A program made the position numbers and the translations under genes. A stretch of 64,000 bases of DNA from a virus. Lineage: Duplodnaviria; Caudoviricetes. Below are positions 6,698 through 61,077 of this stretch, piece by piece (within the stretch, counting starts at the first letter, position 1; every line of letters starts with the position of its first letter). Location of the stretch: IMG/VR virus record IMGVR_UViG_3300027749_000034; one strand, given 5' to 3'. The notes under the pieces are model-generated. The model did not search any database and was not told where the DNA came from. It saw only the letters and a list, made by a program, of their open reading frames with translations.

Positions 6698-6853
6698 ATG
6701 ACATTAGATAAAAAGATCAAAGAAGCAGAGTGGACACGCACTCATACATTGAGCAAAGAGCAGTTACAAAAATTGCTCCGTGACAAGATGAAGAGAGCGC
6801 AACACATGCATCAGTTAAACAAGCGAGAGATGTTGACTCAGAGACATCGTTGA
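6698..6853 (+). CDS. 51-aa basic hypothetical protein
   Basis: AAGGA SD; MTLDKKIKEAEW...QRHR. Confidence 0.65.
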   Translation: MTLDKKIKEAEWTRTHTLSKEQLQKLLRDKMKRAQHMHQLNKREMLTQRHR

Positions 6854-6864
6854 TCGCCAAGTGG

Positions 6865-6894
6865 TTGACAGGAAACGAGGTCCTGTGCTACACT
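6865..6894 (+). promoter_or_regulatory. sigma70 promoter for the RNA array
   Basis: TTGACA-N18-TACACT with TGn. Confidence 0.7.
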
Positions 6895-6957
6895 ATAAAC
6901 AAGCACAAACGGGCGGTACTAGGGATGAAGCACCTTGTGTGGTGTGAAAAATCTAGT

Positions 6958-7050
6958 ATATTAAAGCATATACTTGCCTGACTGCAAACGTCGTGGTAAA
7001 CTACTAGAGAAAGGGGTTCAAATCCCCGGGACTGGTATGTGCTTTAATAT
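6958..7050 (+). ncRNA. tRNA-like RNA closed by a 16-bp helix
   Basis: ATATTAAAGCATATAC/GTATGTGCTTTAATAT stem enclosing GGGG-TTCAAAT-CCCC T-arm. Confidence 0.55.
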
Positions 7051-7098
7051 ACACATTGAGCTGGCCAGGACTGTAATGTCGCAGACAGTGTGTTTAAC

Positions 7099-7183
7099 GG
7101 AGAAGAAGCATCAATGGTGATGCAGTGGACTGTAAATCCGCCGCCTTCGGGCACGACTGGTTCGATCCCAGTATTCTCCACCA
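7099..7183 (+). tRNA. tRNA-Tyr(GTA)
   Basis: Cloverleaf, CTGTAAA loop, long variable arm, CCA. Confidence 0.92.
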
Positions 7184-7188
7184 ATTTA

Positions 7189-7280
7189 GGAAGTGTGGCC
7201 GAGTCCGGTTTATGGCACTAGTCTTGAAAACTAGCGGAGGGTTAAACCTCCCGTGAGTTCGAATCTCACCGCTTCCGCCA
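7189..7280 (+). tRNA. tRNA-Ser(TGA)
   Basis: Cloverleaf, CTTGAAA loop, long variable arm, GCCA. Confidence 0.92.
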
Positions 7281-7287
7281 TGTCAAT

Positions 7288-7362
7288 GGGCCAGTAGCTT
7301 AATGGTAAAGCAACCGACTCATAATCGGTCGAGTCTTGGTTCAATTCCAAGCTGGCCCACCA
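7288..7362 (+). tRNA. tRNA-Ile2/Met(CAT)
   Basis: CTCATAA loop, GGGCC acceptor resembling Ile2, ACCA. Confidence 0.85.
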
Positions 7363-7368
7363 GTTTAT

Positions 7369-7443
7369 GCCCTGTTAGTTCAACGGATAGAATTAGAGTC
7401 TTCGAAACTCAGGATGGTGGTTCGATTCCATCACAGGGCGCCA
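7369..7443 (+). tRNA. tRNA-Arg(TCG)
   Basis: CTTCGAA loop, GCCA end. Confidence 0.88.
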
Positions 7444-7446
7444 AGT

Positions 7447-7646
7447 TTTGTTAGAGTGTCAGCAAGAGAAAGACTCGCTAGAAGGCTTCTTCGAAGGGCC
7501 GACTAATGTTAAAGAAGGACGGGTTCAAGTCCCGTAAACGCAGTGGAGCACCTTTGTCCTGTATCCCAAGTGACTTACCGAATCCCGCTCGAGCTTGTTA
7601 ATTCGGGTGAATGGTGCTTATAATGTGGTAGCACTACTTTAACAAA
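7447..7646 (+). ncRNA. unclassified 200-nt multi-branched RNA with T-arm
   Basis: 12-bp end-to-end stem, ACGGG-TTCAAGT-CCCGT T-arm, GAGCACC/GGTGCTT and further helices; sits between two tRNAs. Confidence 0.65.
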
Positions 7647-7654
7647 TTCAACAT

Positions 7655-7732
7655 GTACAGATGCCCGAGAGGCCCAAGGGAACTGATTGCAAACCAGTAA
7701 AGCCGTCGGTTCAAATCCGACTCTGTACTCCA
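7655..7732 (+). tRNA. tRNA-Cys(GCA)
   Basis: TTGCAAA loop, U73 discriminator, CCA. Confidence 0.9.
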
Positions 7733-7733
7733 A

Positions 7734-7808
7734 GGTAATGTAGCATAATGGTAGTGCGCCTGCTTCATACGCAGTCCAGTGCTAGTTCGACTCTAGCCAT
7801 TACCACCA
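7734..7808 (+). tRNA. tRNA-Met(CAT)
   Basis: TTCATAC loop, GGTAATG/CATTACC acceptor, ACCA. Confidence 0.88.
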
Positions 7809-7828
7809 ATTTTATAGGAGAGCCTGTT

Positions 7829-7966
7829 ATGGCCAGTGTCAAGAAAGGAACGATGACTCGTTCACCACAGTGGTGGAAACACCTTAAAGAATGGAAGCGT
7901 GTGTTCTGGAAAGCAGAACGACAAGCTCACAAAAAAGCGGGTATAGCTCAGTTGGTAGAGCAGTAG
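7829..7966 (+). CDS. 45-aa basic hypothetical protein ending inside tRNA-Lys
   Basis: GGAG SD; MASVKKGTMTRSPQWWKHL...; stop TAG lies within the tRNA. Confidence 0.6.
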   Translation: MASVKKGTMTRSPQWWKHLKEWKRVFWKAERQAHKKAGIAQLVEQ

Positions 7967-8012
7967 ACTTTTAATCTATTGGTCGTGGGTTCGAATCCCT
8001 CTGCCCGCACCA
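7937..8012 (+). tRNA. tRNA-Lys(TTT)
   Basis: Canonical cloverleaf, CTTTTAA loop, ACCA. Confidence 0.95.
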
Positions 8013-8025
8013 ATAAATAGTTGTA

Positions 8026-8370
8026 ATGAAAATTCAGCAAGACAGCACCGGACTTTATATTGAAACAGATGAAGTAGTCTGTCGTCCAGTTGAATCAAGT
8101 CAATTCAAATCAGATGAAGAGGTTCGGCTGGCACTTGATGCTGAAATAGCCACGGTCAGTGATGCCAATGATCGCGGTGCAAATGCCTTTGAAGAACAGT
8201 GGCAAGCAGTATACAAATCTCAGCCGGCTAGAGTTACGTCAGCGCCGGTAACTCATCCACCCATGTATTATGTAGAACACACAGGTTGGTATACTGCAAT
8301 CATAATCCTACTGGGCGTCACTGGGTTTGACCTTGGTCTTCTTGTTGGCACCATCTGGGCCAGGCTTTAA
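8026..8370 (+). CDS. hypothetical protein with C-terminal TM
   Basis: ORF; TAAATA-N6-ATG. Confidence 0.65.
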   Translation: MKIQQDSTGLYIETDEVVCRPVESSQFKSDEEVRLALDAEIATVSDANDRGANAFEEQWQAVYKSQPARVTSAPVTHPPMYYVEHTGWYTAIIILLGVTGFDLGLLVGTIWARL

Positions 8371-11276: not shown

Positions 11277-11498
11277 ATGCCAACAGTCTATACTGAAGTC
11301 GAAGTCGATGTAAGTCTAAGTGATTTTGATACCGAAGATCTAATTGAAGAATTAGAATCTCGAGGTAACTTGCCAATTGAGGGCAATACCGACGCTAAAG
11401 AGCTAGTCGAGTCAATGTATCTAAAGCGTAGAAATGGCAAAGACTACCAGCAAGAGTTGGACCAACTGATTTATCGAGTCCTTGGTAAGATCGTTTAA
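11277..11498 (+). CDS. hypothetical protein
   Basis: ORF with AAGGT SD. Confidence 0.7.
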   Translation: MPTVYTEVEVDVSLSDFDTEDLIEELESRGNLPIEGNTDAKELVESMYLKRRNGKDYQQELDQLIYRVLGKIV

Positions 11499-11508
11499 AT
11501 TGCATCAT

Positions 11509-11583
11509 CTGGCCATAGTACAATGGATAGTACATAGAGCTTCTACCTCTAGAATGTGGGTTCGATTCCTGCTGGCCGGGCCA
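11509..11583 (+). tRNA. tRNA-Arg(TCT)
   Basis: CTTCTAC loop, GCCA. Confidence 0.88.
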
Positions 11584-12432
11584 CTTATTGTTGTAATGTT
11601 TGCAATGCCTGCACAGGCAAAAAAGAAAACAACTGCACCACCTAGCGAACCAGCTCGTGCAGTTTTAGTTTTTAATGCAACAACAGATACACTGGTGCAT
11701 GGTCTAAACATACACGACATCATGCCAATTGCCAGTGTGACAAAATTAATGACTGCATTTGTAGTCTTAGAAAGTCGAGCAGACTTGGATGAAAGATTGC
11801 CAGTTGTACCACAATCAGTGGAAAGTAGCCGTGTTCTCAAGCTTGGTATGATAATTACTCGACGAGAACTACTACACCTTGCACTTGTCTCCAGTGATAA
11901 CCTAGCGGCAAAATTGCTTGCTGTATACCATCCATACGGTTATGATTCATTTGTTCGAGAAATGAATGCCACGGCACAACGCCTGGGAATGAAGAATACA
12001 TCCTATATTGAACCAACTGGACTCCTGTTAAACACCAGTACCGCATGGGATTTACACCTGCTGAATCGTCATCTATCTAAATATACAATTTTCAAAGAAG
12101 CCGCAATGAGCGCAACAGCCAGTGCAGAAGCCCGGACTCGCCGGGGCATATGGCAAAAGTTAGTGATTCGTAACACCAATGCATTTGCAGGAAAATATGA
12201 TATCAAGATTGCCAAAACTGGATTTACTAATCCAGCTGGCTGGTGCATTGACATGCAAGTGCATCATAAGGACCAGGATGTAGATTTTATAGTACTAGGC
12301 TCACCAAGCAAAAAAATACGCAACGAGCTGGTCAGTAAACGATTAAACAATTACATGACTTTCATGACATCTCGATCTATTGTTATTAAAATTGAAGACA
12401 TTGATGATGCAAGTGGATTTATTAATTGGTAA
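11554..12432 (+). CDS. peptidase S11 D-Ala-D-Ala carboxy/endopeptidase (PBP7/PbpG-like)
   Basis: SVTK (SxxK), SDN (SxN), KTG motifs; signal peptide if start is ATG 11554. Confidence 0.85.
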   Translation: MWVRFLLAGPLIVVMFAMPAQAKKKTTAPPSEPARAVLVFNATTDTLVHGLNIHDIMPIASVTKLMTAFVVLESRADLDERLPVVPQSVESSRVLKLGMIITRRELLHLALVSSDNLAAKLLAVYHPYGYDSFVREMNATAQRLGMKNTSYIEPTGLLLNTSTAWDLHLLNRHLSKYTIFKEAAMSATASAEARTRRGIWQKLVIRNTNAFAGKYDIKIAKTGFTNPAGWCIDMQVHHKDQDVDFIVLGSPSKKIRNELVSKRLNNYMTFMTSRSIVIKIEDIDDASGFINW

Positions 12433-16862: not shown

Positions 16863-18020
16863 ATGTTTAAAAAATCAGCAATATGCCTGGTTCTTTGCTG
16901 TTCAGCAGTTGCAGTTTATTCAGCACCCAGTGAGATCACCCCCAGTCAAGCCACAGGTGGCATGGCATTCCGGTATCCAAACATTCGTTTGCCGGCGGCA
17001 GATCAACCTAATCTATTACCTAATAAAGTATTGACCGAGTCGGACCGCAATATTATTAATCAAGCAGAATCCATGTTTGATCGTAATGCATCATTGTCTA
17101 TTGTAATGATAGAAAAGGGACAGCTGGTGTTTGAAAAGTATCGACAACCAGCAAGTCCACGCTCGTTGAACTTTTCATGGTCCATGAGTAAGAGTTTAAC
17201 TGCATACACCGTTGGCGCCATGTCATGCGAAGGTAAAATACCAGATCTCAATAAACCAGCGCAGACATATTCTCCGGACCTCAAAGACACAGTATATGGC
17301 GAAGCAACAGTAAAGAATTTGCTAACAATGAGTAGTGGTGTTCGTAGAGCTATATATGCAGGAAATTTAATTAAGAAACAACCAGGTACATGTGATCCTG
17401 CTAGAGATTGTGACGGCTGGCTGATGCAACGAGCCGGTATTATGACTGGTTTAGAAATGATCAAGCACGATGCAGATCGTGACACCTCTTGGGGCAGACC
17501 AGTGGCCAGTGGATCCAGGTTTGCTTACAATGGAACTGATACATTAAGCTTGGCAAATGTTGCAGATCATACAGGTGGATTTGTTGATAATTTTAACAAG
17601 CACATATGGTCGCAGATTGGCAGTCAAGGACCAGGACATTGGCTGGTTGACAAAGACAATAAAGCAGTGGCACAGGCAGGGTTTAGTGCAACCAGCAAAG
17701 ACTGGGGACGTCTGGCCATGTGGTCTATCAAACAGCTAAAGTCTGAAGATAAATGCATCAGTAGTTTTATGAAAGAAGCTACCACAGAACAATTGCCAAA
17801 CTCAACTGGCGAAGCAGGCCGAGCGTTTTCTGGATATGGATATCAGACCTGGATCATGCCCGAACGCTGGGGACAAAAAGCCAGTTATTGGTGGGTGGGT
17901 TTTGGCGGACAACGAGTTGGTGTTGATCCAGTGAGCGAAAAGATTATTGTGGTGACCAGTAGTCGAGAAGATTACATGGATGAAATCTACGGGTTGTTTC
18001 AAAAATGGCAAAGGCAATAA
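16863..18020 (+). CDS. secreted serine hydrolase, beta-lactamase/AmpC (S12) family
   Basis: Signal peptide; SWSMSKS (SxxK), FAYNG (YxN), WWVGFGGQ. Confidence 0.8.
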   Translation: MFKKSAICLVLCCSAVAVYSAPSEITPSQATGGMAFRYPNIRLPAADQPNLLPNKVLTESDRNIINQAESMFDRNASLSIVMIEKGQLVFEKYRQPASPRSLNFSWSMSKSLTAYTVGAMSCEGKIPDLNKPAQTYSPDLKDTVYGEATVKNLLTMSSGVRRAIYAGNLIKKQPGTCDPARDCDGWLMQRAGIMTGLEMIKHDADRDTSWGRPVASGSRFAYNGTDTLSLANVADHTGGFVDNFNKHIWSQIGSQGPGHWLVDKDNKAVAQAGFSATSKDWGRLAMWSIKQLKSEDKCISSFMKEATTEQLPNSTGEAGRAFSGYGYQTWIMPERWGQKASYWWVGFGGQRVGVDPVSEKIIVVTSSREDYMDEIYGLFQKWQRQ

Positions 18021-34220: not shown

Positions 34221-34279
34221 TAGACTTTGGGCCCTTTGGGGGCGGGCCAATGCCCCCTACATATTTTAAAGGATGCCAC

Positions 34280-35599
34280 ATGTCGACTACAGTTAACACT
34301 TTTATTATCCATGCACTAGAAACACATCCTAGCCGCTTGAATAAAGAAGCAATAATTGAAGCCGAGGCAAAAGCAGGGAATGACGAATTCTTTGCCGGTG
34401 TGCGCCTTGCACTGGACCCAATGATCACATTTGGTGTCAAGAAAGTTCCTCGGCATGGTGGCCCAGATGGACAGGGTTTACCATGGGCGGCATTCAAAGC
34501 CCTGGCAGATAGTCTTGCCAGTCGTCAGTTAACAGGTGACGCGGCCCGAGATGCAATTGAACTTTGCCTCAAGACTGCAAAACAAACTGAGTGGAACGAT
34601 TGGTACATGCGTATCCTTACCAAGGACCTACGAGCCGGGTTTGGCGAGAACACAGTCAACAAAGTAGTCAAGAAAATCAAACCTGCCTACATGATACCAG
34701 TGTTTGAATGTCAGCTTGCACATGATAGTGCCAACCATGAAAGTAAAGTATGCGGACAACGCCTAATCGAAGTCAAGTTGGATGGAGTTCGTGTTTTGAC
34801 AATCGTGTACCCGGATGGTCGAGTAAACCAGTACAGCCGCAATGGCAAGGAATTGGTGAACTTTGGTCACATCAAAAACCAATTCGAGCAAATAGCGACT
34901 GGCTTGCTGGAGCCCTGGGTGTTCGACGGCGAGATAATGTCAAGTAGTTTTCAGGACTTGATGAAGCAGGTGCATCGCAAAAGTGATGTGGATGCTGGTG
35001 ATGCAATTTTAAACTTGTTTGATTGTGTTCCGTTGGTACACTTTAAAGCAGGCCAGTGGAACGCCACACAAACATTTCGTAGTAACCATCTAACCACATT
35101 TGTTGAGCACCATAAAGCTGTTCTAACAAGTGTAAGAGCCTTGGGCCAAGAAACGGTTGATCTTGACACTCCGGCAGGACAGAAGCGTTTTAAAGAGATA
35201 AACAAGAATGCAATAGCTGGCGGTTATGAAGGTATTATGATTAAGGATCCGAATGCTCCTTATGAGTGCAAGCGAAGTGTGTCTTGGCTCAAACTCAAAC
35301 CCTTCATTGAAGTAAGCTTGGAGGTAAAAGATGTTGAAGAAGGAACAGGAAAAAACATTGGTCGGCTTGGAGCGGTTGTATGTGAAGGAATCGACGATGG
35401 TAAAACGATCAAGACTAATGTTGGGTCTGGCTTTACTGATGTTGATCGTGATAGCTTTTGGGGTTCACGCAATAACATTCTTGGACAATATATCGAAGTG
35501 CGAGCAGATGCTATCACACAGAACCAAGATGGCACTTTCTCCCTCCGCTTTCCTCGATTCCTACGATTCCGCGGATTCGAAGTTGGCGAGAAAATTTGA
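34280..35599 (+). CDS. lig: ATP-dependent DNA ligase
   Basis: EVKLDGVR (KxDG), FDGE, EGIMIK, WLKLK, SLRFPRF. Confidence 0.95.
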   Translation: MSTTVNTFIIHALETHPSRLNKEAIIEAEAKAGNDEFFAGVRLALDPMITFGVKKVPRHGGPDGQGLPWAAFKALADSLASRQLTGDAARDAIELCLKTAKQTEWNDWYMRILTKDLRAGFGENTVNKVVKKIKPAYMIPVFECQLAHDSANHESKVCGQRLIEVKLDGVRVLTIVYPDGRVNQYSRNGKELVNFGHIKNQFEQIATGLLEPWVFDGEIMSSSFQDLMKQVHRKSDVDAGDAILNLFDCVPLVHFKAGQWNATQTFRSNHLTTFVEHHKAVLTSVRALGQETVDLDTPAGQKRFKEINKNAIAGGYEGIMIKDPNAPYECKRSVSWLKLKPFIEVSLEVKDVEEGTGKNIGRLGAVVCEGIDDGKTIKTNVGSGFTDVDRDSFWGSRNNILGQYIEVRADAITQNQDGTFSLRFPRFLRFRGFEVGEKI

Positions 35600-39434: not shown

Positions 39435-39440
39435 GTGTTA

Positions 39441-41099
39441 ATGAATTTCTTTGACAAAATTTCCAAGCAAGTAAAAGAGCCGCCTAAGAGAAAAGACTTT
39501 GGTTATACTGAGTATTTTCAAAAGGCAGAGAACATGCGAGACAACCTGGACAAAATTAGTCCAACAATGTGTCTGGCCAAGTGGTTACAAGTCAGTATCA
39601 ATCTGGCCAACGGTACCACACAAAGTTGTTATCATCCGCCTCCGCATGCTATTCCACTACTAGAGCTCAAAGAAAATCCCAGCGCATTGCATAACACCAA
39701 GTTCAAAAAACAAGAACGAGAACTAATGTTGACTGGCAAGCGGCCAGAAGGTTGTAGTTACTGTTGGCGTGTGGAAGATGCACCTGGTGGTGGCCCACAA
39801 GGACACCTTAGTGATAGACATTACAAGTCCAGCGAAGACTGGGCCGCCCCTGACTTTCGCAATGTAGTTCTAAAGGAGGCCGATTTCGATATTGTTCCAC
39901 GATATGTCGAAGTGAATTTTAATCAGGCTTGTAATTTCAAATGCATGTACTGTAGTCCTCATATCAGTACAGCATGGGAAGAAGAAATCAAACAGCATGG
40001 ACCTTACAACTTTGACTTGCCGGGCAAAAACAAGGTTGATCATAACAATCTACGCAATTTAAAAGTTTCAGGATACATGCCGCTAGAAGTTGCTGTCAAA
40101 GATAATCCTTATGTGACAGCATTTTGGAAATGGTGGCCAGACATTTATCGTACACTACGAGTATTTCGTATGACTGGCGGCGAACCATTGATGGATCGGA
40201 ATACCTTTAAGGTGTTGGACTATGTGAATGAGAATCCACATGGACAATTAGAACTAAGCATTACCAGCAACATGTGTCCGCCGGATCAAAAGTTATTTGA
40301 CAAGTTTATTAGCAAAGTACAGGCCATTGAAGTCATACGCACTTATGAAGATACTGAAAACTTCAACAAGTTCAGTGGCAATCATTGGTATGTGGACAAG
40401 GGCTTTAAACATTTCTGGTTATACATCAGCTTGGACGGAGTAGGTCAGCAAGCAGAATATATGCGTACTGGTTTAGACTATGCAAGATTAATGTCCAACA
40501 CTAGAAAGTTCTTAGCTGAAACTAAGTACACCACTGTCAGTTTCATCAACACCTTTAACATACTGTCAATTCCAAGTTTAAAAAGTTGGTTGCAAATGAT
40601 ATTAGATTTGCGAGTAGAATTCGGCGGCCGGAATCAAACTGAGTTTGAAATTGCTCCAGAACCAACAGAGCACGAAAAAGAACATGGCATTGAACACAAG
40701 AAGTATTTCCAAAAGAAGTTCCAAAGAATATTTTTAGACATACCATTGCTAAAATACCCCAACTGGTTTGATCCACAAAATGCAACGCCAACCTTGATTG
40801 CAACCATTGAAGATTGCTTGGAGTTTATGCGTAGCAATGCACAGCAAGAAGATTACAGAGAAACATTTGAAGGTTTCAAGCCACATGAGATATTGAAACT
40901 TGAAAGAAATCTAGCTATAATTAAAGAAGGCAAAGACCCTGCCGCTGTTCAAACGAATAGATTACAATTTTATCAATACATAAATGAGTATGATAGACGC
41001 AGAGATACTGCCTTCTTAGAAGTTTTTCCGGAGATGAACTCCTACTACAATGAATGTAAGTTGTTACAAATGAGAATAGACGATGCCAAAGAAACATAA
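39441..41099 (+). CDS. radical SAM protein, N-terminal twitch-like domain (array 1)
   Basis: CLAKW...SCYH...CSYCW; CNFKCMYC; GGEP. Confidence 0.9.
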   Translation: MNFFDKISKQVKEPPKRKDFGYTEYFQKAENMRDNLDKISPTMCLAKWLQVSINLANGTTQSCYHPPPHAIPLLELKENPSALHNTKFKKQERELMLTGKRPEGCSYCWRVEDAPGGGPQGHLSDRHYKSSEDWAAPDFRNVVLKEADFDIVPRYVEVNFNQACNFKCMYCSPHISTAWEEEIKQHGPYNFDLPGKNKVDHNNLRNLKVSGYMPLEVAVKDNPYVTAFWKWWPDIYRTLRVFRMTGGEPLMDRNTFKVLDYVNENPHGQLELSITSNMCPPDQKLFDKFISKVQAIEVIRTYEDTENFNKFSGNHWYVDKGFKHFWLYISLDGVGQQAEYMRTGLDYARLMSNTRKFLAETKYTTVSFINTFNILSIPSLKSWLQMILDLRVEFGGRNQTEFEIAPEPTEHEKEHGIEHKKYFQKKFQRIFLDIPLLKYPNWFDPQNATPTLIATIEDCLEFMRSNAQQEDYRETFEGFKPHEILKLERNLAIIKEGKDPAAVQTNRLQFYQYINEYDRRRDTAFLEVFPEMNSYYNECKLLQMRIDDAKET

Positions 41100-42621
41100 T
41101 GAATCCTTTGCCGAATACAAAATTCGGATGGTTGACAGCACTAGCGACAGCTTCTGTGCCGCCAAATGGCTCAATGCCACAATTTGGTTGGGCAATGGAC
41201 AAACAACCAGTTGCCACCATCCACTTGGACATCAAATTGATGCAAGTGAACTCGACGCCAATCCCACTGCCATTCACAATACACCGCACAAGAAACTCAT
41301 GCGTAAGATGATGCAGGAAGGTACTCGTCCACAAGAATGTGAGTACTGCTGGAAGATTGAAGACTTGGGTCGCAACAGCATATCGGATCGTGTGTACAAA
41401 ACTGCGGTGTTCTCGGACAAAGACATCATTGCGGCCGCTACCACACATTGGCAACACGATACAATGTTAAAGACATTGGAAATTTCGTTTGACCGTACTT
41501 GCAATTTTTCTTGCAGTTATTGCAACCCCAGCTTTAGTACCAGTTGGGTCAAAGACATTAAAAAGTTTGGCCCATATCGTAACATTGATGGTGATGCCCG
41601 TAGCCACTTTATCAATGCGGCTGACCATGCTATTCCAATTGCAGACGAAACCAATCCTTACATCAAAGCGTTTTGGCGCTGGTGGGATGAAGGGCTAGCC
41701 GACAACTTAGAAGAGATTCGAATCACTGGTGGCGAGCCATTGATGGCTCCGGGCGTTTGGAAACTGATGCAATGGTTCAAAGACAATCAAGAACGAGCAA
41801 CCAAACGAGCCGACGGCGGTGTATTGCGTTATGCCATCAACAGTAACCTGGTGCCCAAAGATGACTTGATGGACAAGTTTATTGAGTTGAGTAAGTTTGT
41901 TCCGCACCTGGAAGTTTATACCAGCAATGAAAGTGTGGGCGCACACAGCGAATACATTCGTGATGGTATGGTCTACAGCAAATGGAAAGACAATTTGCAT
42001 CGCTTGCACACTGAAGGCAATATTAAAAAGACACACATGATGATGACCATCAATAGTTTGTGTCTTGCCAGTATCACCGAATTCATGGATGAGATACTGG
42101 AATTCAAGCGTGAGCATAAAACTGTATATCCCACAATGAGTTTGAATATTCTGCGTTTTCCCAGCTTCCAGAGTTGCGCCATGTTGCCAACCAGCATTAG
42201 ACAAAAGTATCGCGACAAGTTACAAGCATGGTTGGATAATATAATTGCCCAGGATGAACGAGTACAAATGGGAACTGGCCCACATGGTTGGCCTATCATG
42301 ACTCCAATTGAGCGTGAACAAACACAACGACTGATTGACTATCTTGATGTCATCAAGACACCGCACAAGAATGTCAAGGATATGGGTCAACAGCACTTGG
42401 ACTTTAAAAACTTCTACACACAATATGATGTGCGTAGAGGCAAGGACTTCCGTGCAACATTTCCACAGGAGTTTGTTGATTGGTATGACAGCATTGATAC
42501 ACCAACTCCGTCAAGAGAAGAAATCCTAAGCGGAACATACAGCGATGAAACTGGACATATTCCAGACCATCCGCCCGAAGACCCCAGCAAGGAAGAATTT
42601 TTCAATCCGGACTTACAATGA
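41083..42621 (+). CDS. radical SAM protein (array 2)
   Basis: CAAKW...SCHH...CEYCW; CNFSCSYC; GGEP. Confidence 0.9.
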   Translation: MPKKHNESFAEYKIRMVDSTSDSFCAAKWLNATIWLGNGQTTSCHHPLGHQIDASELDANPTAIHNTPHKKLMRKMMQEGTRPQECEYCWKIEDLGRNSISDRVYKTAVFSDKDIIAAATTHWQHDTMLKTLEISFDRTCNFSCSYCNPSFSTSWVKDIKKFGPYRNIDGDARSHFINAADHAIPIADETNPYIKAFWRWWDEGLADNLEEIRITGGEPLMAPGVWKLMQWFKDNQERATKRADGGVLRYAINSNLVPKDDLMDKFIELSKFVPHLEVYTSNESVGAHSEYIRDGMVYSKWKDNLHRLHTEGNIKKTHMMMTINSLCLASITEFMDEILEFKREHKTVYPTMSLNILRFPSFQSCAMLPTSIRQKYRDKLQAWLDNIIAQDERVQMGTGPHGWPIMTPIEREQTQRLIDYLDVIKTPHKNVKDMGQQHLDFKNFYTQYDVRRGKDFRATFPQEFVDWYDSIDTPTPSREEILSGTYSDETGHIPDHPPEDPSKEEFFNPDLQ

Positions 42622-44003
42622 AACGAGTAATACCAATTTGGGAACCAGGTAAGCCAGCCAAGGACAATCCTAACCCTTATTTCTGTATGGCACCTTGGCG
42701 CCACACTTACATCAGTCCGCAAAGTGAGCGCAGACTCTGTTGTGCCAGTAGAGAAGAGCACAGCTTCCAGAAGCAATACATTGACAGTAGCAATGACAAG
42801 GCCTACGGAGCAGTGACTGAAAGCAAGACAGCATTGTCAGATTACCAGCCAGTCAGTTTAAAGGAACACTGGAACAGCGACTACATGAAAGATATTCGGG
42901 TCAAGCTGATGGCTGGTGAAGAAATTCCACAATGTGATGTGTGCAATCATAATTTACTAATGGAAGGCAGTTACAAGGGTTGGTTTACAGGTAATCTATT
43001 TCGCGAACAGATTCAACAGGCGTTTGATGCAACAGATGAAACAGGCCATACCACAATGGAACCTGTCAGCTTTGACTACAGGTTCAGTAACCTATGCAAT
43101 TTCAAATGCCGCATGTGTGGAGAACAATTGAGCAGTAGTTGGGAAGTTGAAAAGAAACAGCATGACCTATGGACACCCAAAGACCAACCCTTTATGGTTC
43201 CTGAAATCAAGTCTGCCATGCAAGACTTCCAAGCTCGTGTGGTAGAACCTGAATTTCGAGATGCAGTACAGCGTGGTATCATTGAAGAAATGTATTGGGT
43301 AGGTGGCGAGCCATTGATGTATGATATACATTGGTGGACGCTTGAAGAAATGCTTCGCAATGGCAGTGCAAAAGATTGTTACATGCGCTACAACAGCAAT
43401 CTAAGTCGTGTGGTGTTTGGTAAAAAGAATCTGTTTGATTACTTGCCGCAATTCAAAGACTGGATGATGTGTGCCAGCATAGATGGCACAGGTGAAATTG
43501 TAGAATATATTCGTACAGGCATCAAGTGGAACGAGTGGCTGGCCAACTTTAAAGAAGGGGTGAGCTTGCCTGGCGGTCGAGAGCGCATGAAACTGGATTT
43601 GACCATCACAGCACCGGGCATGTTCTCTCTCAAAGATCTATTTGAACTAAGCTTGGAATTAGATGTTGAAATCATCACAAAGATTACATTTGCGTTCCAT
43701 GCAGATATCATGTGGACACCAATGAGCTGGCCCAGACATATTTTAAATCGTCACATTGAGGAACTTGTTGCTTACATGCGACCTTTAGCAGGACCAAAGC
43801 AATGGAGTGTAATCTCTACCTTAGAGTCCATGCGTGATAGTAGACAAACACATGAAGAAGCCTTTCCAGAAACTTATAAGTCAGCGGCCCGCAACGGAAT
43901 GAATTGGGTCAAGCGGTTGGAAACAATCCGCAAAGATAAAACAACCATGGCCACAATCTATTCTGCAGATCCAGAACTGCTGGCTTGGTGGGAGAGTCTA
44001 TGA
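42618..44003 (+). CDS. radical SAM protein (array 3)
   Basis: CMAPW...LCC...CDVC; CNFKCRMC; GGEP. Confidence 0.9.
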   Translation: MKRVIPIWEPGKPAKDNPNPYFCMAPWRHTYISPQSERRLCCASREEHSFQKQYIDSSNDKAYGAVTESKTALSDYQPVSLKEHWNSDYMKDIRVKLMAGEEIPQCDVCNHNLLMEGSYKGWFTGNLFREQIQQAFDATDETGHTTMEPVSFDYRFSNLCNFKCRMCGEQLSSSWEVEKKQHDLWTPKDQPFMVPEIKSAMQDFQARVVEPEFRDAVQRGIIEEMYWVGGEPLMYDIHWWTLEEMLRNGSAKDCYMRYNSNLSRVVFGKKNLFDYLPQFKDWMMCASIDGTGEIVEYIRTGIKWNEWLANFKEGVSLPGGRERMKLDLTITAPGMFSLKDLFELSLELDVEIITKITFAFHADIMWTPMSWPRHILNRHIEELVAYMRPLAGPKQWSVISTLESMRDSRQTHEEAFPETYKSAARNGMNWVKRLETIRKDKTTMATIYSADPELLAWWESL

Positions 44004-45193
44004 AAGACACAAGATGCGTGTTACCCTGGATGCATCTGGCCAGCCATCCCAATGGCGGCGTTAGTCTATGCTGTCGTAGCAATCACACTGATGCAGTCAG
44101 TTGGGCAATGAAGCCACGCACAACACAATTACAGACCTTTGACAATACCAACATCTTGACCATTGCCAACAGCGACAACTTTGTTCGTGTACGGCAAGAC
44201 ATGATTGATGGCAAGGAACCTGTTGAATGTGAAGGTTGCTGGCAGGATGAGGCCGCTGGCCTGGTCAGCAAGCGCATGTACGAAAATGAACGCTGGGCAC
44301 ATATTGTACCAGAGCTGGAACAAACAGCACGATTGACCAAGCCAAACTATCGTTATGTTGAGCTGAGACTTGGCAATGTATGCAACAATGCCTGCGTGAC
44401 CTGCAACAGTTTCAGCAGTAGCAAGTGGTACGGAGATGAAGTCAAGATTGCCAAGGATCTGCCTTGGTTTACATTGCGACCAATGGAAAACTTCAAATGG
44501 CATGACCGACCAGAGTTTTATTCTGAGCTGGCCACATTGAGCACAGATGTAGAAGAGATTTACATCAACGGTGGTGAACCAACACTGATAAAAGCACACT
44601 TTGGTTACCTTGAAAAGCTGATAGCCACAGGGCAAGCACAACAGGTACACTTGGTGTACAGTCTTAACATGATGGATATTCCAGACAGACTTGCTGACTT
44701 ATGGAAACACTTTAAACGGGTCACTGTCAACTGTAGTGTCGACGACTACGGTGCTAGAAATTATTACATTCGTTGGCCCAGTGTATGGGTTGACACAGTC
44801 AACAGCATCAAGAAATTGGATGCAATTCACACTGTGGACTGGCATGTGACACAAACTGTCAGCATATTCAATGTGTTTAATCTAGACAAACTGGATGACT
44901 GGATGCGATATTCATTTGATAAAAACACAACTCATAACTATGTGTTGTATCCAGACTATCTCAGTTTACAGGCTGTTCCAACAGCACTTAAAGCACAATT
45001 AAAATCCAAGTATGAATACAAGTTTGATGATGCCAAAAGAAATGAATTGTATGCCAAGCTTGACAGACCTTGGATTCCTGAATTGACTGTCAAGGCCAGG
45101 GAGTTTGTTACAGCGTTGGATAAGAGTCGTGAGTTAAACTATAAAACTTATGTGCCTGAACTAGAAGAAATTATAAATGCAGATACCAATTAA
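44000..45193 (+). CDS. radical SAM protein (array 4)
   Basis: CVLPW...LCC...CEGCW; CNNACVTC; GGEP. Confidence 0.9.
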   Translation: MKDTRCVLPWMHLASHPNGGVSLCCRSNHTDAVSWAMKPRTTQLQTFDNTNILTIANSDNFVRVRQDMIDGKEPVECEGCWQDEAAGLVSKRMYENERWAHIVPELEQTARLTKPNYRYVELRLGNVCNNACVTCNSFSSSKWYGDEVKIAKDLPWFTLRPMENFKWHDRPEFYSELATLSTDVEEIYINGGEPTLIKAHFGYLEKLIATGQAQQVHLVYSLNMMDIPDRLADLWKHFKRVTVNCSVDDYGARNYYIRWPSVWVDTVNSIKKLDAIHTVDWHVTQTVSIFNVFNLDKLDDWMRYSFDKNTTHNYVLYPDYLSLQAVPTALKAQLKSKYEYKFDDAKRNELYAKLDRPWIPELTVKAREFVTALDKSRELNYKTYVPELEEIINADTN

Positions 45194-46454
45194 CATTGAA
45201 CACAGCTTTTGTGCGGCCAAGTGGCTGATGGTCACCATGCACTTTGGCATGGGTGAGAATCACTCCTGCTATCATCCACCGATACACCGTTGGGACTTGG
45301 CGGATGTAAACACGAACCCAGGTGCATTGCACAACAGCAAGCACAAGATCAAACAGCGAGAAATGATGCTGAACGGCATCCGTCCCAAAGAGTGTAGCTA
45401 TTGTTGGGACATGGAAGACATTGATGCCACAGCAGTCAGTGATCGTAAGCGTTTTACCAATGAAACCTGGGCTATTGAACGCAGACAAGAGATATTATCT
45501 GCGCCAGCTGACCAGCCTGTTGGTCCAGCACACTTGGAAATTTCATTTGCCAACACCTGCAACTTTGCCTGTAGCTATTGCAGTCCTGGGCAAAGCTCAA
45601 CATGGGAACACGAAATAAGCAAGTACGGTTCATACCCAATTGAAGATCCAACTGTGCATCGAGACAAGATGCACGATATGATACCCGAGGATAACAATCC
45701 TTACATTGATGCATTTTGGAAGTGGTTACCTGAAATATATTCTGGCCTGCGTTATCTACGCATAACAGGTGGAGAGCCTTTGGCCACCCGTAACTTCATG
45801 AAGCTGTTGGATTATGTGGCAGAGAATCATAATCCTGAGCTGACACTGGTTGTCAACACCAACCTGTGTGTACCTGAAAAGAACTTGGATCTATTCTTTA
45901 CCAAAGCAACAGCATTGCTTGAAGCAAAGACTATTAAAGGACTCGAAGTTTACACCAGCATGGACACATGGGGACCACAAGCAGAATACATTCGTGACGG
46001 ACTTGACATTGTCAAGTGGGAAGCAACAGTACGCAAGGTCAGCACAACATTTGGAGTGCCTATTCGTGTAATGGTCACATTTGGCCTGATGAGTGTGTTT
46101 AACTTCAGTGTGTTTGTACAGAAAGTAATTGACATGCGAGCCGACGGCATTGATATCATGTTCAATTGCTGTCGTCTTGTTGACCCCAAGCAGTTTGACC
46201 TACGCATCTTGCCAGACAGTTGCGATCAATACTTTGATACAGTCAATGACTTTGTGCTGACCAATCCTACTGTGAGTGTTGAAAGAGAAACATGGGAAAT
46301 GGTCTATCAGTTCTGGAAGTCTAGACACACTGCAATGAATGTGATTGAGCGCGATCATCGCCGAGATCAATTTGCTCGATTCACAGCAGAGTATGATAAA
46401 CGCAGAAGCTTAAACTTTGCCGCGACCTTTCCGGAATTGGCAGGATGGATTTAA
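45177..46454 (+). CDS. radical SAM protein (array 5)
   Basis: CAAKW...SCYH...CSYCW; CNFACSYC; GGEP. Confidence 0.9.
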   Translation: MQIPINIEHSFCAAKWLMVTMHFGMGENHSCYHPPIHRWDLADVNTNPGALHNSKHKIKQREMMLNGIRPKECSYCWDMEDIDATAVSDRKRFTNETWAIERRQEILSAPADQPVGPAHLEISFANTCNFACSYCSPGQSSTWEHEISKYGSYPIEDPTVHRDKMHDMIPEDNNPYIDAFWKWLPEIYSGLRYLRITGGEPLATRNFMKLLDYVAENHNPELTLVVNTNLCVPEKNLDLFFTKATALLEAKTIKGLEVYTSMDTWGPQAEYIRDGLDIVKWEATVRKVSTTFGVPIRVMVTFGLMSVFNFSVFVQKVIDMRADGIDIMFNCCRLVDPKQFDLRILPDSCDQYFDTVNDFVLTNPTVSVERETWEMVYQFWKSRHTAMNVIERDHRRDQFARFTAEYDKRRSLNFAATFPELAGWI

Positions 46455-47560
46455 CACCTTTTAAAAACTGTCTGGCGCATCGGCACGGCCTGTACATATC
46501 AAATGAAACCAAGCCATACATGCCTTGCTGTTGGTTCAAGCCCGGAGTCAGTGCCAGTACCTACAGCGAATATCAAAGTAAATTGAGTGAAATTGATATT
46601 GCCGCCGGCTGTCGACATTGTATTGATCAAGAAAGTGCAGGCGCAACATGGAGCCATCGTCAGTTGTTTAAAGATGTAAATGAGTTGGTCATTGGTGTAT
46701 GCTTTGACAATCTTTGCAATATCAAATGTATCACTTGTAATCCCTATTATAGTAGTCAGCACATAAGCGAGTGGGAAAAGTTGGACAAGTTCAATACTCG
46801 TGGGCTTACCAAGAAATACTTTAACACCATGCTGGATCAGGGCAGTAGCAAGCTTGCAATGATTGAAGATACTATATCAAACTCAAGTTTTAATAAGTTA
46901 CGCTTAGAAATTTTTGGTGGTGAACCATTGATCAATCCAGTGGTGTTGAAGTTCATTGCCTGGCTGGCCGCCAGTGACCATGCCGATATAACTGAACTGG
47001 TTATAACAACAAATGGTACTACCTCACTGACAGTGATTGAATCTGAATTAAAAAACTTCAAGCGAGTATTGATTCAATTCAGTGTAGATGGAGTTGACGA
47101 GGCATTTGATTCAATGCGTTACGGCGCTGACTTTGACAAAATGAAAGTCAATGTTGATTACTTCCGGGCGTTGACACAGTTGCACAACAATCTAAATTAC
47201 GGGTTTAATTTTACTTTGTCCTGGCTAAATGCTGATTCATTCCTGCCCTATTACAATTGGTTGCTGTTAAATTATATTGATGCGGACAGTTTACATTTGA
47301 CAAAACTAGATAGGCCAGAATATTATGCAGTTAATTTACTGCCAGAGTCTCGACGAGACAGCTTGTTGTCATTGTTGCCACAGTTGGCACCTAATCAACA
47401 GTTTCAAAGACTGTTGGATCTATATAAAGAATCTTTACAATTTACAACCAATATTGACACAGCTCTGTTGAGTCAAGGCATTAACGAATTGAAAAAGCTA
47501 GTGACTGTTCGCAACCATAATGAACATATACAAAGATTGATTGACGAATACCAGACATAA
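46445..47560 (+). CDS. radical SAM protein (array 6)
   Basis: CLAH...PCC...CRHC; CNIKCITC; GGEP. Confidence 0.9.
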   Translation: MDLTPFKNCLAHRHGLYISNETKPYMPCCWFKPGVSASTYSEYQSKLSEIDIAAGCRHCIDQESAGATWSHRQLFKDVNELVIGVCFDNLCNIKCITCNPYYSSQHISEWEKLDKFNTRGLTKKYFNTMLDQGSSKLAMIEDTISNSSFNKLRLEIFGGEPLINPVVLKFIAWLAASDHADITELVITTNGTTSLTVIESELKNFKRVLIQFSVDGVDEAFDSMRYGADFDKMKVNVDYFRALTQLHNNLNYGFNFTLSWLNADSFLPYYNWLLLNYIDADSLHLTKLDRPEYYAVNLLPESRRDSLLSLLPQLAPNQQFQRLLDLYKESLQFTTNIDTALLSQGINELKKLVTVRNHNEHIQRLIDEYQT

Positions 47561-47569
47561 CCTGTTGAA

Positions 47570-47575
47570 TAAATA
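47570..47575 (+). promoter_or_regulatory. T4-late-like promoter box
   Basis: TAAATA-N5-ATG(47581). Confidence 0.6.
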
Positions 47576-47580
47576 TCGCT

Positions 47581-48900
47581 ATGAACACTGAATTTAACCC
47601 GCTAGAATTGGCCAAGAAAAGTAGAACCTTCTGTATCCTGCCTTGGATCCATCAATATGTAGGACCACCTGGAGATGTCAAGCCCTGCTGTGTATACGAA
47701 CACAAGGAACAAATTGGCAGTCTCAAACAAAATACACTAAAAGAAATTTGGAACAATGACGCTACGCGGACCATGCGCCTGAAATTTCTAAACGGTGAAG
47801 AAGATGCCAACTGTGGTCGTTGCAACAGCAGAGTTGAATTGGAAGCTGAATTTAAAAATAAATTTAACGATGACTTCTTTAAGAACAATCAAGCTGTACA
47901 CTCAATTGTGGCCGCAACCAATCCTGATGGTAGCCTAGACGAACACAAGTTGATCTACATGGATGTGCGTTTTAACAATCTATGTAATCTAGGGTGCCGC
48001 AGTTGTGGTCCACACTTTAGCACCAGTTGGATTGTGGATAGTCGCAAGCTGTACAACAAGAAGACCAAAGAATCAATCAATGATGAATTCCAGTTTCCAG
48101 GGCAAACAGAAGAACAAGCACTAGAAGAAATGATGCCGCATCTGCCCACAATGAAAAGCATTTATTTTGCCGGTGGCGAACCATTGATGCAAAAAGAACA
48201 CTACGAAACACTGAACAAGCTGGTAGAGCTGGGTAATTCGCAATGCGGTATTAGATACAATACAAACTTCAGTAAACTGACCCTGGGCAAACATGATGTG
48301 ATTGAATATTGGAAAAACTTCAAGGATATCAATGTCAATGCCAGTCTGGATGGCAGTTATGCCAAAGCAGAATACTGGCGTCACGGTACTGTATGGAAGG
48401 ATGTTGTGGCCAACAGATTGCGAATGCGCGAACAAGCGCCACATGTTAGATTCAACATTGGCTTTACGCTCAGTTGGCCCAACGCTCACAACCTGATTGA
48501 ATTCCACAGAGAATGGGTAGAGCTGGGTTATATTCACCCAGATAACATCTTATTAAATGTTCTAGATGGACCAAGCTATTACTCGTTAAAGAATATTCCA
48601 GACTGGAAGAAGCATCAAATTGAAAAGCTTTTTAGAGAACAAATGACATGGCTACAGGAACGAGGATGCAACAAACAAACCCTGTTCATGTACGAAACAG
48701 CTATTGGGTTTATGTGGCAAGTACGCTCACTTGAAACTTATAAGATTACAAACCTGCACGACAGTTTGAAGAACTTTAGTCGCATTACCAAGAAGCTGGA
48801 TACAATTCGCGGAGAAGATTTTTGGAAAACATTTCCAGAGCATGCTGATATGCGAGACTACATGACCGAGCATGATCTACACGACGAATTTGATTACTAA
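47581..48900 (+). CDS. radical SAM protein (array 7)
   Basis: CILPW...PCC...CGRC; CNLGCRSC; GGEP. Confidence 0.9.
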   Translation: MNTEFNPLELAKKSRTFCILPWIHQYVGPPGDVKPCCVYEHKEQIGSLKQNTLKEIWNNDATRTMRLKFLNGEEDANCGRCNSRVELEAEFKNKFNDDFFKNNQAVHSIVAATNPDGSLDEHKLIYMDVRFNNLCNLGCRSCGPHFSTSWIVDSRKLYNKKTKESINDEFQFPGQTEEQALEEMMPHLPTMKSIYFAGGEPLMQKEHYETLNKLVELGNSQCGIRYNTNFSKLTLGKHDVIEYWKNFKDINVNASLDGSYAKAEYWRHGTVWKDVVANRLRMREQAPHVRFNIGFTLSWPNAHNLIEFHREWVELGYIHPDNILLNVLDGPSYYSLKNIPDWKKHQIEKLFREQMTWLQERGCNKQTLFMYETAIGFMWQVRSLETYKITNLHDSLKNFSRITKKLDTIRGEDFWKTFPEHADMRDYMTEHDLHDEFDY

Positions 48901-50153
48901 TGAATGAGCAAAAACTATTTAAAATTCGTCAGGCAACAAGTCCAACATTTTGCTTGGCCAAGTTTCACGAAGCAAGTATCTGGGTATACTCAGGCAAGAT
49001 AGCCAGCTGTCATTATACGCCATTCCTACAGGTTGGCACCACAGTTGACACATTCTACAATCCGCCAGAAAAACGCAGTCACCAACAGAGTATGCTGGCC
49101 GGAGAACAGCCGCCTGCATGCAACAGTTGCTGGCATTTTGAGAATCTTGGCTTGACCAGTGATCGTACTCGCAAAAGCCTGGCATTTACGGATCACTTGA
49201 CAGCAGAGGAATACTTTGATCCTGCTTACAACTTTAAACCAAAAGCATTGGAGTTGGCATTTCAAAACACCTGCAACCTGGCCTGTAGCTATTGCAGTCC
49301 ACAGTTCAGCACCAGCTGGATCAATGATATTCGAACTCGAGGTGTATACACTGGAATCATCACAGACGACCGCAAGCACTATCAAAAGGATCTGAGTGAA
49401 CTGGATGAAATGATTGCGCCCCCAGATATGACATTGTTCTGGCAGTGGTTTGAAACAGTTGCTCCAGGACTAGAAAGTATTCGTGTCAGTGGTGGTGAAC
49501 CACTCATGCACGAAGAAGTATTCAAACTGTTTGACCGGATGACCGAAATAAATCCCAATATTGAATGTGTCGTACACACTAACCTTTGTCAAAAGCCCGT
49601 GGTAATTGAACGCTTCTTAGAAAAAGCCAAGCGATTAAACAACCTGCGTGTCAATGTCAGCAATGAAAGTGCAGGTGCTGTGGCAGAGTTTATTCGCGAA
49701 GGCATGGTCTACGATGAATGGTTGCATAATATGGAATTATTATGCAACAGCAATGTCAGCGTGGCCACAGTCAGCACAACCTGTAGCGCAATTAGCCTAC
49801 AAGCCCTGGATCGAATGTATATTGACATCATTAAAATGCGAGAGCGCACTCGTATTAAACCAGCTGTCACTATTAATATGGTAGACAAACCAGACTTCCA
49901 GGGCTTTGGTTGTTTAAGCAGAGCAGACAGAGACTTTTATATCAAAAAATACACTGCCTTCTATGCCACGATTCAAAATGATTTACTTCCATTTGAAGTA
50001 GAGTACGCTGAACGATTGATTAAAATGTTAGATGCGGGGCTTATTAAAGATAACCAAGCGGCATTGCGTAAGGATAGCGATACATTCTTTGAACAGTACA
50101 CACAGCGAAGAAACAAGCCTGTTAACTTTGCACAATTTATAGGCAAAGTATGA
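48900..50153 (+). CDS. radical SAM protein (array 8)
   Basis: CLAKF...SCH...CNSCW; CNLACSYC; GGEP. Confidence 0.9.
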   Translation: MNEQKLFKIRQATSPTFCLAKFHEASIWVYSGKIASCHYTPFLQVGTTVDTFYNPPEKRSHQQSMLAGEQPPACNSCWHFENLGLTSDRTRKSLAFTDHLTAEEYFDPAYNFKPKALELAFQNTCNLACSYCSPQFSTSWINDIRTRGVYTGIITDDRKHYQKDLSELDEMIAPPDMTLFWQWFETVAPGLESIRVSGGEPLMHEEVFKLFDRMTEINPNIECVVHTNLCQKPVVIERFLEKAKRLNNLRVNVSNESAGAVAEFIREGMVYDEWLHNMELLCNSNVSVATVSTTCSAISLQALDRMYIDIIKMRERTRIKPAVTINMVDKPDFQGFGCLSRADRDFYIKKYTAFYATIQNDLLPFEVEYAERLIKMLDAGLIKDNQAALRKDSDTFFEQYTQRRNKPVNFAQFIGKV

Positions 50154-60651: not shown

Positions 60652-61077
60652 TTGAACGATTCAAATGTGTATGTGGTCAGTCCTCCAACATTGTACATGC
60701 CCGGTGGTGGACTTGCCTTTTGTCTTATTGGCAATGATAAGACATGGCAAGACTCTATTATAGAGTTATTAGAAAAAGGAATTCAAGATAATCAATTGAC
60801 TTTTTATGTCAATGATTCGACCAATGTAGATCCTAAGACTTGGGTTTGGTATTGGCACATTGCAACTAACTGTAGCATGATCATATGCGAACTGGCACAT
60901 GCCAGCGAACAAGAAGTCAGGATGGCATTGGCCATGTGTAAAGAAAACATGCCAGTTATATTTTATGTCAAGCCAGGCAATGATGAATTTATTGCACTAC
61001 TCAATGCCATTGATATTCCCTGGGTTGAAGACCATGATGAACTAATAAAAATCATGGAGTCAGCTTTTGGCGGATAA
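60652..61077 (+). CDS. hypothetical protein
   Basis: ORF, TTG start. Confidence 0.65.

Follow-up and report, generated by a model that had tools for sequence, protein, structure and literature searches.

Structured RNAs with two self-complementary loops in the tRNA islands of freshwater phages

An RNA element between two tRNA genes and its relatives

The IMG/VR record IMGVR_UViG_3300027749_000034 provides 64,000 nucleotides (nt) of viral DNA (Duplodnaviria; Caudoviricetes), and this whole stretch is called the window below. ARAGORN detected 16 transfer RNA (tRNA) genes on its + strand between 7189 and 11583. Two of them, tRNA-Arg(tcg) (7369-7443) and tRNA-Cys (7655-7732), bound a gap of 211 nt, which a first reading of the sequence (the original prediction) had assigned to an ornate RNA filling the space exactly. 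The flanking genes agree with this assignment, and the element starts one base past the CCA of tRNA-Arg. We searched the gap (7444-7654) with ARAGORN and with the 4227 models of Rfam 15, at gathering scores as well as at E-values (E) up to 10. No tRNA, transfer-messenger RNA (tmRNA) or Rfam match was obtained there, in line with the earlier proposal that the element is neither a tmRNA nor a member of a known family. A covariance model of the family described here, R1, was built from 75 representatives; it aligns with the element over its full length and detects a single copy in the window.

To reach relatives, an exact 25-mer of the T-loop hairpin of the element was searched, which matched one IMG/VR contig (L001), where a diverged copy has other tRNAs as neighbours. 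Scans with degenerate patterns returned 19, 23, 44 and then at least 119 viral loci, together with at least 120 metagenome loci. In total the collection comprises at least 272 loci, which hold at least 189 distinct full-length copies of 200-230 nt. Loop and structure counts out of 189 refer below to these distinct copies, and counts out of 120 to an earlier set of unique copies. The sources are uncultured freshwater phage contigs and lake metagenomes, and the sequencing runs that contain the stretch of the window are likewise freshwater and lake metagenomes. Among prokaryotes, scanned at one genome per species, real copies were found in three contigs of metagenome-assembled genomes only, each inside a tRNA array; one of these contigs is 183 kb long and has 20 tRNAs. 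Five large phage contigs hold exactly one copy each according to R1, and a single locus, L066, has two.

In the cultured phages of INPHARED the tRNA array of the window was matched through its tRNAs only. The element itself, with the window copy and a copy of the long type (see below) as queries, gave only chance-level matches of 24-39 nt in the same collection. Rfam 15 has no such family, 13 other loci with members having been searched as well as the window. The family was not found in the searchable literature, and it could sit unnamed in the catalogue of Fremin et al. 2023 (PMC10690425), whose 8495 candidate RNAs from IMG/VR might include it.

Most copies lie within tRNA arrays, directly behind a tRNA: 87 of the 120 unique copies begin between -1 and +2 nt from the 3' end of a tRNA called by ARAGORN, and these upstream tRNAs are of 19 identities. 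The next tRNA follows 1-9 nt past the trimmed copy in about 70 of 120, the trimmed end falling inside the 3' tail, and a tail resembling AAUUCAAU is kept in the copies that lie within tRNA arrays.

At five loci (L020, L021, L050, L102 and L126) a GOLLD RNA scoring about 200 bits lies some 30-240 nt upstream of the copy on the same strand, and the copies downstream of GOLLD have another flavour of the terminal stem P1. GOLLD (RF02032, gathering score 150 bits) was not matched anywhere in the 64-kb window, and R1 gave no match inside the GOLLD of L102. A GOLLD scan of the five large contigs gave no match, but its control was empty too, so that absence is not implied. The GOLLD of L102 (L102:775-1239 (-)) has a tRNA embedded in its linker (L102:1105-1176), and permuted tmRNA genes occur in the same phage tRNA islands (L020:754-1160 (+) and L052:3288-3596 (-)). 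No constant neighbour protein emerged: the commonest cluster of open reading frames (ORFs) was present in 23 of 79 loci, with flanks that were short and redundant.

Three lake studies (X16, X17 and X18) have RNA-library contigs that span positions 7468-7640, some of them with 0-2 mismatches. Several of these contigs terminate in adapter sequence, which implies short inserts. The flanking tRNAs are without cover in X17 and X18, and this pattern fits a discrete RNA; the lack of cover over 7444-7467 in the same two studies proves nothing. Contigs of X15 and X16 stem from a relative of about 92% identity in which 7448 is fused to 7654, so that tRNA-Arg is followed directly by tRNA-Cys and exactly 205 nt are missing. 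We read this joint as that of a phage presumably devoid of the cassette, excision from RNA being the other possibility. Since the missing segment amounts to exactly 205 nt between the same two tRNAs, the RNA behaves as a discrete cassette that is either present or absent.

Covarying fold and two self-complementary loops

The features of the window copy are listed here; base numbers such as A18 are counted from 7444 = 1, and PK stands for pseudoknot helix.

7444-7652, + strand: whole RNA element, short type, 209 nt (R1 score 202 bits, E 1.1e-63, full length)
7447-7457, + strand: P1, 5' strand UUUGUUAGAGU, pairs with 7636-7646 over 11 base pairs (bp) in the window
7458-7461, + strand: PK-A, 5' strand GUCA, pairs with UGAC at 7571-7574
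7462-7471, + strand: purine-rich conserved joiner GCAAGAGAAA; A18-G23 and A26-A27 invariant in the 75 representatives
7472-7474, + strand: PK-B, 5' strand GAC, pairs with GUC at 7556-7558
7478-7506, + strand: P2 arm; outer stem CUAG/CUAA with one C-A mismatch in the window, inner stem 7484-7489 with 7496-7500
7490-7495, + strand: loop A, UUCGAA, closed by C-G; self-complementary hexamer ending P2
7514-7555, + strand: probable helix Py, GAAGG (7514-7518) with CCUUU (7551-7555), enclosing the T-loop hairpin and a 15-nt linker
7519-7535, + strand: T-loop hairpin ACGGG-UUCAAGU-CCCGU, with a covarying stem; loop invariants U, U, C, A, U follow the tRNA T-loop pattern
7556-7558, + strand: PK-B, 3' strand GUC, partner of 7472-7474
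7571-7574, + strand: PK-A, 3' strand UGAC, within the conserved AAGUGAC
7584-7607, + strand: P6 hairpin bearing loop B, CCCG (7584-7587) with CGGG (7604-7607)
7587-7594, + strand: loop B, self-complementary octamer GCUCGAGC with core CUCGAG
7608-7614, + strand: joiner UGAAUGG, invariant or nearly so
7614-7634, + strand: P7 hairpin, GUGCU (7614-7618) with AGCAC (7630-7634), 11-nt loop with an invariant GG
7636-7646, + strand: P1, 3' strand ACUUUAACAAA, partner of 7447-7457
7647-7654, + strand: 3' tail UUCAACAU, reaching the 5' end of tRNA-Cys

Standard pairs form in 98.8% of the cells of the model-fitted alignment (90 copies), compared with 84.5% once it is shuffled. Double-sided changes occur at 18 of 26 pairs, a level that none of 500 shuffles reached, and the slid controls pair at 32-49%. 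Compensatory changes among the relatives thus stand above all shuffles and all slid controls. P1 and the outer stem of P2 (P2a) were counted apart, on the 120 unique copies. The stems often accept G-U pairs and seldom A-C pairs, an asymmetry indicating that the selected molecule is the RNA of the + strand. The elements supported by covariation are the terminal stem, two long-range pseudoknot helices, the T-loop hairpin and three further hairpins.

The pairing of the two ends, anticipated by the original prediction, corresponds to P1. Across the family P1 is 89-99% canonical, with switches between UA, AU and CG, and 8 of its 9 shared pairs have double-sided changes. A minority of copies have a second flavour of P1, of wholly different sequence and still fully compensated. 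PK-A is 100% canonical in 120 sequences, its third pair being CG in 80, UA in 25 and UG in 15. The middle pair of PK-B is UA in 82 copies and AU in 37 (56 and 31 in the model-fitted alignment). Five of the six inner pairs of P2 have changed on both sides, and its outer stem is compensated as well, for example CUAGG/CCUAG versus UUAGG/CCUAA. In P6 the third pair is CG in 89 copies and UA in 29, the fourth is GC in 90, AU in 13 and UA in 9, and three of the four pairs are double-changed. In P7, 99.8% of cells are paired and four of five pairs have changed on both sides.

The T-loop hairpin had also been recognized at the outset as resembling a tRNA T-arm. It is present and conserved in the relatives, and its stem covaries (UA 54, CG 46, AU 12) under a loop of consensus U-U-C-R-A-N-U. 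Two divergent members have other hairpins in its place and keep both palindromic loops described below. The joiner UGAAUGG is complementary to the GUUCR of the T-loop in 98-100% of copies. This pairing is unproven, since it displays no double changes and since UGAAUGG is kept in members without the T-loop. For Py, compensation was judged by eye (GAAGG/CCUUU versus GUAGA/UCUAU); with only the central pairs 87-95% canonical, in a mixed subset, the sequences give this helix moderate support. The linker that follows the T-loop hairpin distinguishes two types. In the short type of about 205 nt, the class of the window, it has 15 nt; in the long type of about 225 nt it is replaced by two added hairpins, one of which usually has a GNRA-type loop, e.g. 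C-GGAA-G.

Three other helices of the original prediction fared less well. The GGC..TTCG..GCC hairpin is real and lies at 7484-7500, but instead of a UUCG tetraloop it bears the 6-nt palindrome UUCGAA, with C-G as closing pair. The family does not keep the GAGCACC/GGTGCTT helix, no more than 8-79% of its cells being paired, and GGUGCU belongs to P7. The ACCGAAT/ATTCGGGT helix is an alternative in the window and in a few relatives, with 46-97% of cells paired, and it is CCCG/CGGG that the family keeps (CG -> UA). A further candidate helix, UAG/CUG (consensus 60-62 with 122-124), was rejected as an artefact of subfamily differences that clashes with P2a. With its large size, its covariation and its absence from Rfam 15 and from the searchable literature, the family stands as a candidate new class of phage noncoding RNA, as had been proposed. 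The pseudoknots and the palindromic loops, which the first reading missed, are its most informative features.

Of the 189 copies, 185 have UUCGAA as loop A, two have UGGCCA and one has UCUAGA, which makes 188 palindromic loops of three sequences; the last copy reads UUCAAA. Its closing pair is CG in 115 copies and GC in 5, a flip that retains an 8-nt palindrome. An anticodon-like loop CUUCGAA was ruled out by the covariation of this same pair, C46-G53, which leaves the six bases UUCGAA as the loop. For loop B, every one of the 189 copies has a perfect palindrome at the same site, never shorter than 6 nt and reaching 8 nt or more in 138. Loop B makes use of 11 different hexamers: CUCGAG (61), UCCGGA (39), GCCGGC (30), CCCGGG (25) and CGGCCG (15), and more rarely GUCGAC (6), GUGCAC (4), CCUAGG (4), GCUAGC (2), CAGCUG (2) and ACCGGU (1).

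The central adjacent bases of loop B alternate among CG, GC and UA. Neighbouring bases are unable to pair with each other in a single molecule, so that what is conserved is complementarity towards another copy. The same palindrome-switching argument was made by Kretsch et al. (bioRxiv 10.1101/2024.12.08.627333) for loop L9.3 of OLE and loop L21a of GOLLD, for which cryo-electron microscopy (cryo-EM) shows symmetric intermolecular kissing loops. The element has what these authors looked for, palindromes that switch by compensated changes with adjacent bases included. At L066 the two paralogues, L066:83-283 (+) and L066:803-1023 (+), differ in both loops. The divergent copy (103.8 bits) combines UGGCCA with GUCGAC and is devoid of the T-loop hairpin; the standard copy combines UUCGAA with CUCGAG.

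Two other candidate observations were discarded. An intramolecular pairing of loop A with loop B was complementary, by hand, for some loop B variants only. An RNAcofold dimer was 15 kcal/mol better than two monomers, and this was given no weight, pseudoknots being ignored and extended duplexes being modelled in the calculation.

Proposed self-assembly and competing explanations

On balance, we favour the view that the element is a stand-alone structured noncoding RNA of a new family in freshwater-phage tRNA islands, which probably self-assembles through its loops. A more specific version is advanced tentatively, as about as easy to doubt as to believe and somewhat easier to doubt. It holds that the family is a new class of small RNAs (200-230 nt) forming protein-free closed dihedral rings, cages or filaments, in which two orthogonal kissing loops act as a self-recognition code. 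Paralogues would then carry different codes, and the assemblies may work with or beside GOLLD cages.

The position and strand of the element suggest that it would be transcribed together with the tRNA array, and the lake RNA libraries support this. Release would be effected by the enzymes that mature the flanking tRNAs, with the cut of RNase P at the 5' end of the next tRNA presumably setting the 3' end of the RNA. Covariation shows a compact core made of P1, of the long-range helices GUCA/UGAC and GAC/GUC, which connect the 5' region with mid-molecule, and of P2, the T-loop hairpin, P6 and P7. Each loop would kiss the same loop of another copy in a symmetric contact. Two distinct two-fold contacts per molecule could thus lead to dimers, and then to closed rings or chains. 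By analogy with GOLLD and ROOL, in whose functional niche we place it, the product may be a phage-made RNA particle or scaffold during infection.

The comparison with known systems suggests that the self-assembly principle could be the same as in the RNA-only assemblies of OLE, GOLLD and ROOL. GOLLD has several features in common with the element: it is phage-borne and typical of lake metagenomes, lies in or next to tRNA islands, and has an ornate pseudoknotted fold with palindrome-switching kissing loops. It is often longer than 800 nt, however, against 200-230 nt here, and its model, as said above, has no match in the window. ROOL, encoded by phages or prophages, likewise occurs close to tRNA islands, and its molecules (659 nt in the RNA studied) assemble into a dihedral cage of RNA only, with kissing loops and A-minor contacts holding it together. 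Its sequence and secondary structure are unrelated to those of the element, the Rfam matches in the window being to tRNA only.

In loop L9.3 of OLE, a self-complementary core that switches palindromes joins two molecules by pairing with its own counterpart. The dimerisation initiation site of HIV-1, too, has a self-complementary hairpin loop that pairs with its counterpart on another molecule. In both cases dimers form through one loop, whereas the element has two different loops of this kind, which allows rings or chains. Ren et al. 2026 (bioRxiv 10.64898/2026.07.01.735769) observed by cryo-EM that the manA and EGFOA motif RNAs, natural RNAs of less than 200 nt, form higher-order RNA-only assemblies. 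Assembly is shown in these RNAs and inferred in ours, and only tRNA models of Rfam match the window. Phage T4 is known to produce species 1 and 2 (rnaC and rnaD), small stable RNAs encoded in its tRNA cluster and released by tRNA processing. No sequence relation between them and the element was found, the searches of cultured phages giving chance-level matches only.

Several observations weigh against the self-assembly reading. Folded alone, the element has a minimum free energy z-score of -0.7, and 40 of 200 shuffles fold equally well; the z-scores of the two strands (-0.7 and -0.4) are uninformative. From the window alone the finding could have been chance, and support comes from the relatives. 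Neither the strand nor the ends nor the abundance of the RNA can be read from the RNA-library contigs, which may also derive from carried-over DNA. Palindromic loops suggest oligomers, and palindromy is indirect evidence of them. One copy has a non-palindromic loop A (UUCAAA). A 6-nt loop closed directly by C-G is tight for a kissing contact of six base pairs, and the near-invariance of loop A could reflect a protein or another RNA as partner instead of self-pairing. Finally, part of the sampling required loop A in the search pattern.

We considered, as an unlikely alternative, that the RNA is a monomeric mimic or decoy of tRNA. Its T-loop hairpin, perhaps docked on one of the invariant GG motifs as in the elbow of a tRNA, would bind and titrate a factor of the host or the phage that recognizes tRNAs. 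Proposed targets are an anticodon nuclease of a defence system, an enzyme that modifies or processes tRNAs, and the ribosome, with a secondary part left for the palindromic loops. Phages are known to oppose defences that cleave tRNAs by means of their tRNA arrays, and the T-loop consensus and its G-C closing pair are conserved in an RNA that is always found in tRNA islands, abutting tRNAs. However, the two divergent members swap precisely this hairpin and retain both palindromic loops, and a decoy leaves palindrome switching unexplained. The hairpin lies mid-molecule inside Py, without an acceptor-like stem or a CCA; neither a D-arm nor an acceptor mimic was identified in the element, and neither ARAGORN nor the tRNA clan of Rfam matched it.

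It is less probable still that the element is a cis-acting spacer of the tRNA polycistron, a folded cassette that would direct or pace processing, or shield the transcript from nucleases, and have no role after release. Such a spacer would lie exactly between tRNAs, as the element does. Its 5' start AGUUUU and its 3' tail resemble the ordinary inter-tRNA spacers of the array, and in the relative of about 92% identity these two tRNAs are joined, the element being absent. The needs of a spacer are nevertheless far exceeded by some 200 nt of pseudoknotted RNA in which 18 pairs covary and two palindromic loops are conserved. Moreover, some copies lie apart from tRNAs, on the downstream side of a GOLLD, and have a different P1, and the RNA-library contigs cover the element and not the flanking tRNAs.

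A small ribozyme, for instance a minimal RNase P-like RNA maturing the phage tRNAs, is highly improbable. A pseudoknotted core and a location in the tRNA array would suit it, and two motifs, AGAGAAAG(U/A)C and GGGUGAAUGG, loosely resemble the CR-I and CR-IV motifs of RNase P, respectively. Yet no RNase P model of any type matched at E up to 10 in window positions 6700-8100 or at 13 other loci. The geometry also differs: the helix that follows the A-rich motif has 3 bp only (7472-7474 with 7556-7558), and its partner strand lies mid-molecule, with P6 and P7 before the 3' strand of P1, where P4 of RNase P lies next to that strand.

The original prediction had likened the element to YrlA, a Y RNA that would tether a Ro60/Rsr ring to a nuclease, from the terminal stem formed by both ends and the T-arm-like hairpin. 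This likeness is now hardly tenable. The YrlA model (RF02553, gathering score 69 bits) has no match in 7444-7652 at E up to 10, and its weak rows elsewhere (17-31 bits) coincide with true tRNAs. Compared with YrlA, the element is about twice as large, contains two pseudoknots and has its T-loop hairpin in another arrangement, mid-fold and not stacked on the terminal stem, and some members are without this hairpin. The TROVE domain of Ro60 (PF05731) was absent from five large element-bearing phage contigs, one of which, of 383 kb, is rated 100% complete, with control genomes being matched; nor was it found among the large ORFs of the window scanned against Pfam. Finally, a role at the DNA level, with the palindromes as protein-binding or recombination sites and the cassette as a mobile unit of the tRNA array, would account for palindromes of 6-12 nt and for a precise 205-nt presence or absence between relatives, and for an occurrence after 19 tRNA identities, but its probability is close to negligible, as a protein site would keep sequence and not just symmetry (loop B has 11 hexamers), the stems tolerate G-U and not A-C, which is strand-specific at the RNA level, and the long-range helices covary.

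Self-assembly of the RNA through its two loops, if true, would have several consequences. RNA-only quaternary assemblies (OLE, GOLLD, ROOL, manA) were first seen in 2024-2026. The family would add a third RNA of phage tRNA islands with a signature of symmetric self-association, unrelated to the other two and far smaller, and would suggest that self-assembling RNAs are a recurrent phage strategy. With about 210 nt and two mutable loop codes, whose palindromes could be disrupted and rebuilt or recast as heterodimer pairs, it would lend itself to study far more readily than GOLLD and should be within reach of cryo-EM. Its abundance in lake viromes and its presence in lake RNA libraries make it likely that the RNA matters in freshwater phage infection. 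The family fills a recurrent unannotated gap of phage tRNA arrays, and its natural self-recognition loops could serve in the design of RNA nanostructures.

Neighbouring genes and further observations

Some other features lie in and around the tRNA array of the window. At 7099-7180 (+) lies a type-II tRNA-like gene with the anticodon GTA (Tyr), which ARAGORN missed and which scores 35.3 bits with Rfam, just above the cut-off; it shares 90% identity with the tRNA-Tyr of Limnohabitans phage DC31. A T-arm-like hairpin, GGGGTTCAAATCCCC, is present at about 6990-7040 (+), where neither ARAGORN nor Rfam (E up to 10) calls a tRNA. Between tRNA-Met and tRNA-Lys, the segment 7819-7936 (+) has an AGGAG resembling a ribosome-binding site, followed by a short basic ORF with its ATG at 7840. 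A D-Ala-D-Ala carboxypeptidase (Peptidase_S11) is encoded inside the array at 11482-12432 (+), and a beta-lactamase-family protein just downstream of it at 16863-18020 (+).

Farther along the window, an ATP-dependent DNA ligase is encoded at 34250-35599 (+). A run of large genes extends over 39435-50153 (+) and includes radical-SAM/SPASM domains in 41083-42621, 45177-46454 and 47581-48900. From its gene content this run looks like a phage cluster for peptide or metabolite modification. A ClpX-like AAA+ ATPase with a zinc finger is encoded at 61067-62296 (+).

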